From: a virus
DNA: 64,000 nucleotides
IMG/VR virus record: IMGVR_UViG_3300037071_003688
Strand: one strand, 5' to 3'
Part shown: piece by piece, positions 3,949 through 53,473 of the stretch
Position numbering within the stretch: position 1 is the first letter of the stretch
Layout of the letters: the number at the start of each line of letters is the position of its first letter
Notes under the pieces: model-generated
What the model saw: the letters and a program-made list of their open reading frames with translations, nothing else
Database searches by the model: none
What the model was told of the DNA's origin: nothing
Program-made: the position numbers and the translations under genes

Positions 3949-5220
3949 ATGGAAACCACCACGATGACCACCAACCTGAGCTTCACTCCCATCGAGTCGA
4001 CGCTCACCGGCGTGAGCATCCACCTCGCCGACTACCTGAACGTCAAGCTCGCCAAGATCAACAAGCGGCTCGCCAAGATCGGCGCTCCCGCCGCCACGTT
4101 GACGTTCGGCCCGGAAGTCGAGCGCACCGAGACCGACGAGTTCACCGGTTTCAAGCGCACCTTCCGCGAGTTCGAGTTCGTCACGGTCACCGGCTTCGAG
4201 GCCAAGTTCGCCGGTTGGACCGGCGTCGCCGTCCTCGACTGGCGGCTCGACCCGCACGAGGCATTGGTCGCCAAGTTCCCCGGCGAGGAAGACACCGCCG
4301 TTAGCGAGGTGTTCGTCCGGGAGGGCGCCTGGTGCGACCACTGCAACAAGATCCGCTCCCGCAACACCACGGTCCTGTTCCGCCACGAGGACGGCACCGA
4401 GATGCGGGTCGGCACTTCCTGCATCCTCGACTTCATCGGAGTCGACCCCTCCAACGTCACGTGGCTCGCCACCCCGATGTTCGGCGGCGCCGACGACGAG
4501 GAGGAGTTCCGGACCGGCGGTGGCCGCTTCGAGGTCTCGCCCGCCGAGTTCCTCGCCGCAGCCGCCGAGGCGACTCGCCTGTTCGGGTTCGTCAAGTCCC
4601 GCCCCGACACCGCATACGACACGCCGACCCGGTCGCACGCCGCGACGCTCTGCTACCGCCGCCTCAACGACTACGAGAAGAAACTGTACGCCGAGGTTGA
4701 CCACGGCCGGGGCGCCGCCGAGGCCGACAAGATCCTCGCCTGGGTCGATGAGGTCAACGACTTCTCCGACTTCATGCGCTCCGCCAAGCTCGCCTGCCGG
4801 GCCGATCGGGTCATCGACCGCACCGAGGGTCTGCTGGCGGCGCTGCCCTTCTCCTACATGAAGGCGATGGGCAAGCTCGCCGAGCGCAAGGCAGCCGCCG
4901 CCGCCAAGCCCACCGACTTCCTCGGAACGGTCGGCGAGAAGCTGACGGTCGAGGGCACCGTGACCTTCAAGATGGCGATGGAGCCTTACGCCTACAACGG
5001 GCCGACGCCCTATCGACTGACCATCGTCACCGACGACGGCTACACGCTCACGACGAAGGGTTCCGGCAACACCCTCTGGGAGGCCGAGGTTGGCGACCGG
5101 ATCACCTGGACCGGCAAGGTCATCGAGCTTGAGGATCACGAGAAGTGGGGCAAGCGGACCGAGTGCCGGATGGTCAAGATCAAGATCCTCGTCCCCGCCG
5201 CCGAGGCCACCGACGAATGA
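3949..5220 (+). CDS. phage protein with a CxHC zinc motif and a probable C-terminal OB fold (nucleic-acid binding)
   Basis: CDHC...R.R...VGTSC..DFIG; C-terminal FLGTVGEKL...TGKV beta-rich segment; strong codon bias. Confidence 0.75.
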   Translation: METTTMTTNLSFTPIESTLTGVSIHLADYLNVKLAKINKRLAKIGAPAATLTFGPEVERTETDEFTGFKRTFREFEFVTVTGFEAKFAGWTGVAVLDWRLDPHEALVAKFPGEEDTAVSEVFVREGAWCDHCNKIRSRNTTVLFRHEDGTEMRVGTSCILDFIGVDPSNVTWLATPMFGGADDEEEFRTGGGRFEVSPAEFLAAAAEATRLFGFVKSRPDTAYDTPTRSHAATLCYRRLNDYEKKLYAEVDHGRGAAEADKILAWVDEVNDFSDFMRSAKLACRADRVIDRTEGLLAALPFSYMKAMGKLAERKAAAAAKPTDFLGTVGEKLTVEGTVTFKMAMEPYAYNGPTPYRLTIVTDDGYTLTTKGSGNTLWEAEVGDRITWTGKVIELEDHEKWGKRTECRMVKIKILVPAAEATDE

Positions 5221-5234
5221 GAAAGGAAACCACC

Positions 5235-5519
5235 ATGACGACCGACGCCTGGACCGAAGCCCACCGCTTCCCGTTCAACACCGACGAGAACTGGTCCGAA
5301 ACCGAGGAAGGTCTGCTCACCATCCACGACATGAACCCGGGTCTGATCGCCCCCGGGATCGCCGCCCGAGTGATCTACGAACTGCGCCTCGACGTCGCCC
5401 GCCTCAACAGCGAGGCCATCGAGGTCACCGCCAAGTACCGGAGGGAACTCGCCCTCCGCCTGGCAGCCGAAACCGAACTGGCGCTGATCAAGACCGCCCT
5501 GCGAGACCTCACCGCATGA
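5235..5519 (+). CDS. hypothetical protein
   Basis: GAAAGGAAACCACC-ATG. Confidence 0.7.
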   Translation: MTTDAWTEAHRFPFNTDENWSETEEGLLTIHDMNPGLIAPGIAARVIYELRLDVARLNSEAIEVTAKYRRELALRLAAETELALIKTALRDLTA

Positions 5520-5536
5520 GAAAGGAAACCACCACG

Positions 5537-5764
5537 ATGACCTGGAACTACCGCAAGTACGGCGGGCTGGTCACCTACACCACCGACATCAACACCTTCG
5601 CTTGTGTTGTCGAAGGCTGGGATGACGGACCGTGGAAGTGGTACGTCTACGAAGATCCGATGACCCACCACTACGGCGGGACGCCCGAGTCGGCCGGTGA
5701 GGAAGCCACCATCAAGGAAGCGATGGCCGCGGCCGAGAGCTACGCCACGGCGGTGACACGATGA
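5537..5764 (+). CDS. hypothetical protein
   Basis: GAAAGGAAACCACCACG-ATG. Confidence 0.7.
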   Translation: MTWNYRKYGGLVTYTTDINTFACVVEGWDDGPWKWYVYEDPMTHHYGGTPESAGEEATIKEAMAAAESYATAVTR

Positions 5765-5949
5765 GCGGCGAGATCACGATCACGATCGTGCCCGACTCCC
5801 CGTGCCCCGACTGCGGCGCCGCCTGGGGTCACCCGGACAAGGCGCTTGACTTCCCGAACCGCCCGAAGGTCGGCGACGCCGATGGGACCTGGTGGTGGAA
5901 GTGCTACAACCCCGCCTGCGCCCGGGACTACTACCTGCCGCTGCTCTAA
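5761..5949 (+). CDS. small zinc-ribbon protein
   Basis: CPDCG...CYNPAC; coupled start. Confidence 0.65.
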   Translation: MSGEITITIVPDSPCPDCGAAWGHPDKALDFPNRPKVGDADGTWWWKCYNPACARDYYLPLL

Positions 5950-5965
5950 CCGAAAGGAAACCACC

Positions 5966-6136
5966 ATGACCACCCACCGACTCGTGATCCTGAGCTACGA
6001 GGATCCCACCTACCGCCACGTGATCGCCGAACGCGAGACCGAGGCGAGCCTGGCCCGCATCTCGGCCGGGGTCAACATCAACCTCAACCACGACGAGTTC
6101 TTCACCGAGATCGAGGAGGTCGACGGCGATGAGTGA
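5966..6136 (+). CDS. small hypothetical protein
   Basis: GAAAGGAAACCACC-ATG. Confidence 0.7.
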   Translation: MTTHRLVILSYEDPTYRHVIAERETEASLARISAGVNINLNHDEFFTEIEEVDGDE

Positions 6137-6347
6137 CACCCGCTGCCTGGAAGCCGGGCCGGACTGCCGGGGCCGGGTCGAGATGTGGACGACGGACGGC
6201 CTGCGCTACTGGCCGCGCTGCGACTTCCACGGCGAACGCCGCTTGGAGCGGTACGAGAACTCGCTCGAACGCTACGCCGATAGCCCGCTGGCGCCCGACT
6301 GGTTCGATCCGACCATCGCCGGTGAACGCTGGGACGACGACTACTGA
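6129..6347 (+). CDS. small hypothetical protein (C-terminal PDWFDP..AGERWDDDY)
   Basis: coupled ORF with Cys/His motif. Confidence 0.7.
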   Translation: MSDTRCLEAGPDCRGRVEMWTTDGLRYWPRCDFHGERRLERYENSLERYADSPLAPDWFDPTIAGERWDDDY

Positions 6348-6360
6348 TGCTCAAGACTCC

Positions 6361-37141: not shown

Positions 37142-38097
37142 GCGATGCGTCGAAGATGAGCGGCGGTCTGCTCGGTGATCGCCGCCGACGATTCCTTGTA
37201 GACGGCGTCGACCTGCTGGGACCAGAACCGGTGATCGGCGAGCACCTCACTCAGTCGGACCTCGGGGAAATGCGCGCAGGCGCGATCGAAGTGGGCGAAC
37301 ATCGTGCAGTCGGTCACCATGATCGGACGACGGGCGGCGACGAGGTAGTCGAGCGCCGACGACAGCCCGGCGTTGTGCTGACCGGGAACGTAGAACAGAC
37401 AGTTGACGGTGTTCTCGGCGAGCCGGGCGACGACGTCGTCCGCTTCGAGATGGTCGCTCGTGCGGTGCAGACGCAGCCCGGGATGACCATCGAAGATCTC
37501 CTCGATCTGGCGCACGATCCCCGGACCGTACAGTTCGCGGCCCCCAGCGCCGTTGAAGTACGCCTCGGGCATGTGGAGATCGAAGATGGCGACCTGCAAC
37601 GTCGCCGCGATCTCGGTGGCGACGGCCGGGAAGTTCTTGTGCGGGAACGCGAACCCGAACGATCCGATCCGCGGCGGTGACGGCAACGGTCCGAGCGTGA
37701 CGGTGTCGGGTAGCGGCCGGTCGGTGACGAGCACCCACGGGTTCGTGGCGATCAACGTCGGGTCGAGCGCGAGCATGAAGTCGAACAGGCGGTGATGGTC
37801 GGCGGCGACCTGGTCGATTGTGTCGTGCTGGTAGTTGTGGATCACCGCGATTCGTGTCGCCCGATGTCGCTTGATGTCCTCGGTCACCCACGGCATGATC
37901 CCCGGCATGAAGTTGATGATCACCGCGTCGAACTTGTCGGACTCCATCACCCGGTGATACGCCTCGATGTCGTTGACCTCGATGTAGTCGAGCGCGATGT
38001 CCTCCCCGAGCGCGACCAGTCGGGCGTGTCGCCGCCCAAGATCGTGTACGCCGCACACCTCGCTGTGAGCGTGGTTGACGTACAAGACGTTGATCAT
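37138..38097 (-). CDS. GT-B-like glycosyltransferase
   Basis: CGV..; IGSFGFAFPHK; G.SSALD....RP. Confidence 0.65.
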   Translation of the reverse strand: MINVLYVNHAHSEVCGVHDLGRRHARLVALGEDIALDYIEVNDIEAYHRVMESDKFDAVIINFMPGIMPWVTEDIKRHRATRIAVIHNYQHDTIDQVAADHHRLFDFMLALDPTLIATNPWVLVTDRPLPDTVTLGPLPSPPRIGSFGFAFPHKNFPAVATEIAATLQVAIFDLHMPEAYFNGAGGRELYGPGIVRQIEEIFDGHPGLRLHRTSDHLEADDVVARLAENTVNCLFYVPGQHNAGLSSALDYLVAARRPIMVTDCTMFAHFDRACAHFPEVRLSEVLADHRFWSQQVDAVYKESSAAITEQTAAHLRRIA

Positions 38098-39314
38098 GCG
38101 CCGATCACCCGGAACTCCGGACAGGGCACGATGAACTGACCGCCACCTTCGAGGTAGGCGCGCTCGCGCTTCACGAACTCGGAGATGAAGTGCCACGGCA
38201 GCACGAGCAGGTAGTCGGGGTTGGCGGCGCGCATCTCGTCCTCCGAGACGATCGGGATGTTCGTGCCGACCGTGCGCAGCCCGAACTTGTACTGCGACCG
38301 TTCGGCGATGCCGTCGATCATCGTGTGGTCGAGACCGAAGTATTGGAGCAACGTGTTGCCCTTGGTCGACGCCCCGTACGCCCACACCGACTTGCCGCGG
38401 GCGCGCTCCTGCGCAATGAAGCTGACGACGGTCGCCTTGAGCGACTCGATCTTGTCGCGGAACGCGAACCACACCTCGGGCGAGTTGAGATCGTGTACGA
38501 ACTCCATCGCTTCGAGCGCCGCGATCCGCATGTGGCACACGTCGCGGTGCGGCTGCGTCGCGAACATCGTCGGGTCGCCGCCGTGCTTCATCGCGTACAC
38601 CCGGAACGAGCCACCATTGACGTCGTTCAACTGGACATCCACGATCCGCAGCCCAGCGGACCGGAACAAGGCGTCGATCGTCGCCAACGTGTAGTAGTGG
38701 ATGTGCTCGTGGCAGATGTTGTCGAACGCGACCTGGCGCAGCATCAACGGTGTGTACGACATCTGGACGACGAACAGACCATCGTCACGCATGAGATCCA
38801 CGACGTCGCGCAGGAACGGCATCGGATCTTCGAGGTCGTAGAACATGGCGATGCACGTCACGACCTTGGCGCGCAGGTTCCCGAGTTCGGAGTTCTTCCA
38901 CCCGCTGTAGCTGAACGGCTCCTGCAAGATCAGATCGGCGTGGCGGCGCGACTCGACCGCGAACGTGTCATCGGCCGGGTCGATCCCGGCGCGCACCATC
39001 GACTCGGGCACGTGGGCGAGCAGCGTCCCGTCGTTGCAGGCGATGTCGACCCACAGATCACCGCGCTCGATCGGCATCGCGTCGGTGATCGACGTGACGA
39101 TCCCAGCCAACTCGTTGGTCATCGTCGCGTTCGTACCGGACCGGTACCAGTAGCGGCCGTACATGAACTCGGCGTCCGCCGACTCGGAGAGATGGACGCG
39201 CCGCGTCGACTCATCGAACACGAGCTTCAACTCGACCGGCTCGGCCCGCGGTTCCTCGTCCGGGCGAAGGAAGTCCGACACGTACAACCGACCGAGCGAG
39301 AACAGATCCGTCAT
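38094..39314 (-). CDS. NDP-sugar C-methyltransferase
   Basis: Y.YRSG..DIACNDGTLL..FD.ICHEH..YGASTKGNTLL..PWHF. Confidence 0.9.
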   Translation of the reverse strand: MTDLFSLGRLYVSDFLRPDEEPRAEPVELKLVFDESTRRVHLSESADAEFMYGRYWYRSGTNATMTNELAGIVTSITDAMPIERGDLWVDIACNDGTLLAHVPESMVRAGIDPADDTFAVESRRHADLILQEPFSYSGWKNSELGNLRAKVVTCIAMFYDLEDPMPFLRDVVDLMRDDGLFVVQMSYTPLMLRQVAFDNICHEHIHYYTLATIDALFRSAGLRIVDVQLNDVNGGSFRVYAMKHGGDPTMFATQPHRDVCHMRIAALEAMEFVHDLNSPEVWFAFRDKIESLKATVVSFIAQERARGKSVWAYGASTKGNTLLQYFGLDHTMIDGIAERSQYKFGLRTVGTNIPIVSEDEMRAANPDYLLVLPWHFISEFVKRERAYLEGGGQFIVPCPEFRVIGA

Positions 39315-39358: not shown

Positions 39359-39398
39359 GTGAAATGTGTTGACAAACCCTGGACGTTCTGCGCATAAT
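39359..39398 (+). promoter_or_regulatory. repeated sigma-70-like promoter driving the ncRNA/tRNA array
   Basis: TTGACA(39369)-N18-CATAAT. Confidence 0.85.
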
Positions 39399-39441
39399 AC
39401 TGGTGGAAGGAGAAGGGAGTTGGGGTTCTTCTCCTCCGAGA

Positions 39442-39603
39442 GTTCCTGTGCTGTCAGCGTCGTCTCAACCCGGCGCCGAGCAGACTCACGGTCCGTGCAC
39501 GGAGCGTGAGAGAAGGTCCGTGGCCCACGGCACCTGGTGGCCACCAGGGTGGGTACGACCGGTTAGCGGTTCGAGTCCGCTACGGCGCTGAGAGCACAGG
39601 AAC
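39442..39603 (+). ncRNA. tRNA-like structured RNA with no recognisable anticodon arm
   Basis: about 22-bp terminal stem, D-like arm, two long hairpins, T-arm AGCGG-TTCGAGT-CCGCT. Confidence 0.65.
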
Positions 39604-39611
39604 CGCCCAAT

Positions 39612-39684
39612 GATGCTGTAGCTCAGTGGAAAGAGCACCGGCTTGCGAAGCCGGTTGTCGCAGGTTCGAGTCCTGCCAGCGTCA
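39612..39684 (+). tRNA. tRNA-Arg(GCG)
   Basis: cloverleaf, anticodon arm CCGGC-TTGCGAA-GCCGG. Confidence 0.85.
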
Positions 39685-39687
39685 CTA

Positions 39688-39824
39688 CTCCACCGCAAAG
39701 GTTGGCTTAGAAGCAGCCATCCTCTAAGGAGTGACACCCGAGTCCGGACGGTCCGGTGGGAGCCAGGGAACTGGTGAGGAACCTATAGAGCCTCGTCTTA
39801 GGCGTAACAGCACATGCGGTGGGG
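39688..39824 (+). ncRNA. 23S rRNA H43/H44 (L11-binding, GTPase-associated centre) mimic with an insertion
   Basis: GGTTGGCTTAGAAGCAGCCATCCTCTAAGGAGT...GCGTAACAGCAC closed by a 10-bp stem. Confidence 0.8.
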
Positions 39825-39827
39825 CGA

Positions 39828-40192: not shown

Positions 40193-40264
40193 GCCGCCGT
40201 AACTCAACGGCAGAGTACCGGCCCGTCAAGCCGGAAGTCGCGGGGTCAGCACCCGCCGGTGGCG
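40193..40264 (+). tRNA. tRNA-Asp(GTC), non-canonical
   Basis: CCGGC-CCGTCAA-GCCGG (C33), T-loop GTCAGCA. Confidence 0.7.
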
Positions 40265-47785: not shown

Positions 47786-47856
47786 GCGTCGATCGTTCAA
47801 CGGCAGGACCGTTGACTGCCAGTCAACCGATCGGGGTTCGAGTCCCCGTCGACGCT
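47786..47856 (+). tRNA. tRNA-Gly(GCC)
   Basis: GTTGA-CTGCCAG-TCAAC. Confidence 0.9.
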
Positions 47857-47880
47857 CTCACCGCCCAGTACCGTTCGCCC

Positions 47881-53304: not shown

Positions 53305-53376
53305 GCGTCGGTGGTCCAACGGCTACGACCTCAGACTTCCAATCTGATGATGCGGGTTCGACTCCCGTCCGGTGCT
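53305..53376 (+). tRNA. tRNA-Gly(TCC)
   Basis: TCAGA-CTTCCAA-TCTGA. Confidence 0.9.
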
Positions 53377-53473
53377 CTCTTTGCGATAGAGCCGCCACCG
53401 CCCCGATCCTCGCCGGTCGGGGCGGTGCCGCGTCCCGGCCAGAATGTCGCAGCCCTCGCGTACTCTGGACACC

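Follow-up and report, generated by a model that had tools for sequence, protein, structure and literature searches.

A candidate non-decoding RNA on a tRNA-Gly frame in a variable slot at the head of a phage tRNA operon

The first tRNA operon of an uncultured actinobacterial phage begins with a tRNA-like RNA of 162 nt, found in the course of analysing a 64-kb stretch of its genome (the window, to which all positions refer unless stated otherwise). Close syntenic relatives of the phage carry other folded RNAs at the same place, or none, indicating that this is probably an exchangeable accessory RNA and not the partner of the phage Ro60 protein that a first-pass annotation had suggested. The reading we prefer, with a probability of roughly one in three (0.35), is of an RNA that has the frame of tRNA-Gly but does not decode, and that would act in trans as a decoy or adaptor from a variable slot in the operon leader.

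The source record, IMGVR_UViG_3300037071_003688 (G000), is a 147.5-kb IMG/VR phage genome of 65% GC, of which the window covers bases 5329-69328; its portal and major capsid proteins are distant kin of actinobacterial phage counterparts. From 39612 onward there are 32 tRNA genes by ARAGORN, and Rfam contributes one more at 40193. The latter (40193-40264; 52 bits in Rfam), which ARAGORN missed, is unusual in its T-loop (GGGGTCAGCACCC) and carries a C at position 33. The RNA heads the tRNA operon, its site being flanked by a sugar C-methyltransferase gene (38094-39314, minus strand) and by the first of the tRNAs, tRNA-Arg(GCG) at 39612. The open reading frames that overlap it have a third-position GC of 0.57 and 0.63, below the level of about 0.88 seen in genes, so the stretch is taken to be non-coding and a protein-coding reading was dropped. 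The window sequence recurs with 100% identity, over 8.5 and 12.2 kb, in two more assemblies made from other sequencing runs, which excludes an assembly artefact; being identical, these copies offer no variation.

Upstream of the RNA lies a strong phage promoter of the sigma-70, host-like type, TTGACAAACC-N8-TCTGCGCATAAT (39369-39398, plus strand), in which TTGACA-18-CATAAT matches the consensus at 11 of 12 positions. The 30-nt motif has six copies in the window, where none is expected by chance, and it is present at the equivalent place in the relatives L144, L148, L147 and L149; L167 has kept the -35 half while its -10 has diverged, and in the related contig G001 the motif stands ahead of protein genes. 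The six copies, at 1643, 2573, 3909, 39369, 40527 and 54614, are all on the plus strand, with a conserved GGTGG downstream, close to the likely start site. Downstream of the promoter, a leader hairpin with the loop GGGAGUUGGGG folds at 39405-39437 (plus strand). It had been described as the 5' part of the tRNA-like RNA, and it does exist as described; it is, however, kept in relatives that lack the RNA. The window, L144 and L167 all have the hairpin, 4 of its 11 pairs being changed on both sides, and as L144 retains it though without the tRNA-like RNA, it is a separate leader element outside that RNA. No complementary target for its loop was found in the genome. At the other end, an 8-nt spacer (CGCCCAAU, 39604-39611, plus strand) separates the RNA from tRNA-Arg(GCG), whose start at 39612 is given by both ARAGORN and Rfam; L167 has a similar spacer, CCACCAACAU. 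No plus-strand terminator is predicted between the RNA and the tRNAs, and this, together with the lack of a U-tract, led to an intrinsic terminator or attenuator being dropped as a candidate.

The RNA proper (39442-39603) is closed by a long helix, in which 39442-39463 pairs with 39582-39603 across 22 positions. Of these, 21 are paired, comprising 20 Watson-Crick pairs and one G.U (39460/39585), the exception being a G.G mismatch (39453/39592). The 5' strand consists of an outer GUUCCUG (39442-39448) and an inner GCGUCGU (39457-39463), and the 3' strand of ACGGCGC (39582-39588), a discriminator-like U (39589) and CAGGAAC (39597-39603). Across the whole window the two arms rank first among inverted repeats within 300 nt, and the helix is predicted with a pair probability of about 1.0, which bears out the stem of roughly 22 bp in the first-pass annotation; the promoter, arms and palindromes described there were likewise all verified in place. 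Folding, proposed there as a check, gives the 162 nt a minimum free energy (MFE) of -90.6 kcal/mol against -67.2 kcal/mol for shuffled sequences (z -5.66), with none of 200 shuffles as stable. The structure as drawn is a thermodynamic prediction, and its centre is ambiguous, as the MFE contains an AACC/GGUU pairing at a probability of 0.3. Its main weakness is that no homologue with sequence variation was found, and hence zero base pairs are backed by covariation.

Within the closing helix, four arms are predicted, all on the plus strand. A D-like arm (39464-39480), with a CUC/GAG stem and the loop AACCCGGCGCC, is obtained in a constrained fold just 1.7 kcal/mol above the MFE and is the weakest part of the structure model. 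Its loop has AA and GG at D-loop-like positions and contains the palindrome GGCGCC, and the arm is similar in sequence to that of the phage tRNA-Gly(GCC). Hairpin 1 (39485-39510; pair probability 0.93-0.98) consists of 6 bp, a bulge, 4 bp and the loop UGCA, and its tip is a 12-nt palindrome, TCCGTGCACGGA (39492-39503), that includes GTGCAC. Hairpin 2 (39515-39560; pair probability 0.85-0.93) has a GGUC/GACC base, followed by CCCAC/GUGGG and the tip CCUGGU-GGCC-ACCAGG, a 16-nt palindrome, CCTGGTGGCCACCAGG (39533-39548); its flanks, GGTCC...TACGACC, are the same as in the D-stem region of the phage tRNA-Gly(UCC), possibly by chance. The last arm is a canonical T-arm, AGCGG/UUCGAGU/CCGCU (39565-39581; pair probability 0.85-0.9), which directly adjoins the 3' strand of the closing helix in the fashion of a tRNA and contains an 11-nt sequence, GGTTCGAGTCC, common to many of the phage tRNAs.

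Both tetraloops, UGCA and GGCC, are self-complementary, for which the chance is about 1/256 in two random tetraloops. When two copies are co-folded at either tip, an extended duplex of about -17 to -21 kcal/mol is predicted. Dimerisation through the self-complementary tips, as the first-pass annotation had envisaged, is possible; as any palindromic hairpin shows such a gain, the co-folding is permissive and not positive evidence. The sequence of tip 1 is rare in the genome, with GTGCAC having two copies in 147 kb against 41 expected (about 20-fold depleted), one of which is the tip of hairpin 1; TGGCCA, from the tip of hairpin 2, occurs at 0.41 of its expected count. Retention of GTGCAC here can mean that the tip is under selection or was recently acquired. 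The phage genome as a whole strongly avoids 6-bp palindromes. Ten with between 22 and 200 expected copies are absent, namely GCCGGC (200 expected), ATCGAT (93), CTCGAG (90), GGGCCC (67), GAGCTC, TTCGAA, AGGCCT, AGCGCT, CAGCTG and CTGCAG, and GCATGC occurs once. Such avoidance suggests that the host exerts heavy restriction pressure, which is usual for phages of the Streptomyces type.

The first-pass annotation had proposed a tRNA mimic, a claim that the acceptor, discriminator and T-arm support and sharpen to tRNA-Gly. Together with the U that follows, the 7 innermost base pairs of the closing helix (GCGUCGU/ACGGCGC) match both phage tRNA-Gly genes (47786-47857 and 53305-53377) at 12 of 15 positions, whereas the other 31 of the 33 phage tRNAs compared, in the register of the T-arm, reach at most 8 and mostly 2-6. 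The first six acceptor nucleotides, GCGUCG, are identical to those of both genes, and G1-C72, C2-G71, G3-C70 and U at position 73, which together form the bacterial glycine acceptor set, are shared. Its T-loop is that of the phage tRNA-Gly(GCC) and is one base off that of tRNA-Gly(UCC). In sequence, therefore, the acceptor-like helix appears clearly derived from tRNA-Gly. A recent copy of a phage tRNA was ruled out, the longest match being the universal 11-nt T-loop block.

As in tRNA-Gly, the 7-bp acceptor (39457-39463/39582-39588) stacks on a 5-bp T-stem with a 7-nt T-loop, UUCGAGU; unlike in tRNA-Gly, about 100 nt instead of about 42 lie between acceptor and T-arm, and there is neither an anticodon arm nor a free 3' end. 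No 7-nt anticodon loop is present, both internal hairpins having 4-nt loops. Beyond position 1/72 the acceptor helix runs on for 15 further positions (14 pairs and the G.G mismatch), with pairs at positions 73-75 and the mismatch at position 76; because the helix continues in this way, the RNA would have no free acceptor end unless cut. The RNA matches no ordinary tRNA or tmRNA model in Rfam or ARAGORN, a result the first-pass annotation had singled out as bearing on its reading. The tRNA family RF00005 does not match it even at E values up to 10, and ARAGORN makes no plus-strand tRNA or tmRNA call with default settings, introns allowed, relaxed thresholds or tmRNA mode. In Rfam, matches to neighbouring tRNAs aside, no family reaches E = 1 or better over the RNA, and searches at the gathering threshold and at E up to 10 return the neighbouring tRNAs and noise, and nothing else. 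A tmRNA shares with the RNA an acceptor and T-arm linked through a large non-tRNA insert, and a reduced D-arm, but the RNA has no ACCA end, tag reading frame or pseudoknots. That identity was ruled out, as position 3:70 is G-C and not G3.U70 and the sole Rfam match to tmRNA is an 11-bit T-loop fragment.

Searches for homologues of the RNA found none in any collection covered. A blastn search covered 50,697 phage genomes, IMG/VR was searched with an exact 23-mer and with a three-block pattern, and 185,579 genomes were searched with a two-palindrome pattern. The three-block pattern was also run on 241 million metagenome records, giving 41 chance matches, of which none fits the model R1, a single-sequence covariance model of the RNA, at the pattern site. 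R1 itself found no homologue in the window, the whole phage genome, 80 methyltransferase loci or any of the relatives. Relatives by capsid protein (G001-G004) carry no tRNAs, and searches anchored on tRNA-Arg and tRNA-Pro gave nothing, or unrelated low-GC phages only. What led to syntenic relatives was the divergent methyltransferase gene, together with a small gene downstream. Relatives are present in the Logan runs SRR11673795, SRR14194069 and SRR22808031. Where the methyltransferase is more distantly related, no tRNA operon adjoins its gene.

Comparison of these relatives shows that the slot between the promoter and tRNA-Arg(GCG), which in the window holds the leader hairpin and then the tRNA-like RNA, varies in content. 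L144, the nearest syntenic relative (methyltransferase 90% identical in amino acids, flanks 88% in nucleotides), has the same promoter, the same hairpin and the same tRNA order (Arg-GCG, Pro, Arg-CCG, Ala, Trp), and after the hairpin only 11 nt; neither the tRNA-like RNA nor the 142-nt element that follows tRNA-Arg in the window is present. In L148 (methyltransferase 85%) the slot holds no leader hairpin and a different RNA of 173 nt (L148:291-463, minus strand; z -4.0), whose 11-bp closing helix starts with GUUCCUG and ends with CAGGGAAAC, the outer 7 pairs being common to it and the helix in the window. L167 (flanks 89%) has the hairpin, followed by yet another RNA, about 225 nt long (L167:5028-5255; z -3.1), the first domain of which has a 7-bp closing stem followed by UA and three arms in a cloverleaf-like arrangement. 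A homologue of this RNA, cut by the contig end, lies in L147 (methyltransferase 83%; L147:1-90, minus strand), without the leader hairpin, and between the two copies 6 of 23 pairs are compensatory. None of the slot RNAs of L148, L167 and L147 has a match in Rfam or in isolated phages.

Promoter, hairpin, outer helix, a short spacer and tRNA-Arg thus make up a conserved frame, which holds at least four slot states among close relatives. The first-pass annotation had counted lack of conservation against its own reading, and the RNA is indeed missing from the nearest syntenic relative and replaced in others. Its complete absence from L144 indicates that it is dispensable for that phage, and the variable content of the slot argues against an essential role; as the slot holds other structured RNAs in other relatives, however, absence of the RNA there is better seen as an exchange of cargo than as a lack of function.

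The spacer between tRNA-Arg(GCG) and tRNA-Pro (39686-39827) holds a second structured RNA, closed by CCACCGC/GCGGUGG. This element contains a 36-nt exact match to helices H43/H44 of 23S rRNA, the binding site of ribosomal protein L11, and the next 10 rRNA nucleotides resume after an insert of about 68 nt; it is the operon's second RNA to imitate part of the translation apparatus. A 34-nt pattern taken from it matches 23S genes of Dehalococcoidia, 'Bacterium 3DAC' and a Thermoplasmatota MAG. In L144 a 35-nt spacer takes its place, while L148 and L167 carry other RNAs after tRNA-Arg with a similar closing helix (GGUCACCCACC... and CUCCACCCACCG...). An rRNA mimic was also considered for the tRNA-like RNA and rejected, since it has no significant 23S or 16S match, where the neighbouring element matches at 36 of 36 nt.

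On the reading of a trans-acting decoy or adaptor, the RNA would be made early, within the tRNA precursor, and RNase P cleavage at tRNA-Arg(GCG) would set and free its 3' end. The sealed ends may confer stability while precluding charging and entry into the ribosome. Once released, the tRNA elbow and the acceptor/T helix could dock onto a host or phage protein that recognises tRNAs, and the rod-like hairpins, standing where the anticodon arm would be, might add specificity or join two copies. The decoy role is argued from genomic context: as the slot varies and the next slot copies the L11 site, we favour a part in taking over the host or countering its defences, with the translation apparatus as the target.

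An alternative that we regard as unlikely is a cis-acting element for processing or stability, in which the helix would serve as an RNase III-type stem or as an end clamp for the tRNA precursor, and the interior would be a functionless leftover. In its favour, the helix is nearly perfect, spans about two turns and stands right where a polycistronic tRNA transcript begins, and the stable RNAs of the T4 tRNA region need RNase III processing. Moreover, the outer helix is the part held in common with the different cargo of L148, suggesting that the frame is kept and not the interior. Set against this, the relatives manage with 11 bp (L148), with the 7 bp of a first domain (L167) or with nothing (L144), and a strongly folded interior of about 118 nt, complete with a canonical T-arm, would be superfluous for a mere stem.

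It is comparably doubtful that the RNA is a decaying or neutral duplicate of tRNA-Gly, expanded by insertions and carried in the leader as a functionless passenger. The evident descent of the acceptor from tRNA-Gly fits this idea, as do the absence of the RNA from L144 and the lack of any homologue in the other data searched. Decay should, however, cost pairing, and the closing helix, the T-arm and both hairpins are all nearly perfect, with a folding energy far from that of the shuffles; the RNA also retains a palindrome otherwise purged from the genome, and the compensatory pairs between L167 and L147 show that RNAs in this slot are under selection in relatives.

Considerably less probable is the proposal of the first-pass annotation that the RNA is a ligand of the phage Ro60, that is, a further Y RNA with an unpermuted layout as in Deinococcus Yrn1. 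Deinococcus Yrn1 is described as unpermuted, with a long terminal stem around a tRNA-like module (Chen et al., PMC4201824), and the overall plan of our RNA, a long end-to-end stem around a tRNA-mimicking interior with a T-arm, fits the general description of Y RNAs in the same work and resembles both Yrn1 and YrlA (RF02553). The phage does encode Ro60, and in Streptomyces phage Comrade a Ro-like gene lies near a homologous tRNA-Arg(GCG). In that phage (L172, NC_048728.1 69416-72396) the gene, for a Ro-like RNA-binding protein, is 1.3 kb upstream of the tRNA, which is the closest match to the window's tRNA-Arg in an isolated phage. The Ro60 (TROVE) gene here, on the other hand (G000 4738-6351), is about 39 kb upstream of the RNA in another transcription unit, whereas characterised phage Y RNAs adjoin the Ro60 gene (PMC4201824, PMC12135203). 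It also has Y-like RNAs of its own: directly upstream, just before the window, lies an array of Y-RNA-like units (G000 3950-4700; L001:101-177) sharing the scaffold GGTGCG..G.TGA ... YGGTTCTC, one of which contains a T-arm and a D-arm and matches YrlA at 32 bits (E 2e-4).

None of three patterns, the GGTGCG..G.TGA and YGGTTCTC motifs of the phage's own units and the GNCGAAN0-1G motif of PMC4201824, occurs in 39400-39615, and the RNA thus has neither the GNCGAA/CGAA stem motif nor the phage's own scaffold. The YrlA model scores 14.8 bits on the RNA against a cut-off of 69, and this sub-threshold match spans only 39561-39636, which takes in the T-arm and the 5' half of tRNA-Arg, a kind of false positive at adjacent tRNAs against which Chen et al. 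(2014) caution (PMC4201824). The arm order is tRNA-like and unpermuted, so that the first-pass annotation was right to set the topology apart from that of YrlA. With the TROVE gene so distant, furnished with its own Y-like RNAs, and their motifs missing here, the link to Ro60 is unsupported.

The weakest alternative, and a most improbable one, is a MITE-like mobile element inserted in the leader with the 22-bp arms as terminal inverted repeats, a reading which the presence of the RNA in the window, its absence in L144 and the inverted repeats at its bounds might suggest, but which is largely refuted by its single copy in the genome, by the lack of a target-site duplication at its boundaries, and by end sequences (GUUCCUG... 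and ...CCRCCMAAU) that are common to relatives with other interiors, and so indicate exchange of the interior and not insertion of a whole element.

That phage tRNA regions can encode non-decoding RNAs is already known, as is tRNA mimicry by Y RNAs. A close comparison for the RNA described here is with RNAs C and D of phage T4 (species 1 and 2), small non-decoding RNAs that are transcribed with the phage tRNA cluster and whose role is still unknown (PMC3014915). The position of our candidate in a tRNA cluster and the lack of a predicted terminator before the tRNAs would suit an RNA of this type; the T4 RNAs are not known for a sealed end of 22 bp or for palindromic tips, and they come from a phage of another host phylum. 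What is particular here is the combination of a tRNA-Gly frame whose end is sealed over 22 positions, palindromic tips, and exchange of cargo at one framed site. Phage tRNA clusters have come to be seen as a counter to tRNA-cutting enzymes of the host (PMC10264068).

A broader and distinctly tentative idea is that the leader and the first spacer of the tRNA operon in this lineage are sites for RNA cassettes, with GUUCCUG/CAGGAAC framing the first slot, and that the translation mimics they carry form an accessory island. If true, this would be an island made only of RNA, serving host takeover or counter-defence and comparable to the protein anti-defence islands of phages. The locus offers a compact test case, in which a single promoter and tRNA frame is conserved, the slot occurs in four or more states and the flanks are 85-89% identical, and it pairs one cargo that appears clearly taken from tRNA-Gly with another copied from the ribosomal L11 site. 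Should these RNAs act as decoys or adaptors, phages would swap translation-directed RNA modules as they swap genes for anti-defence proteins.
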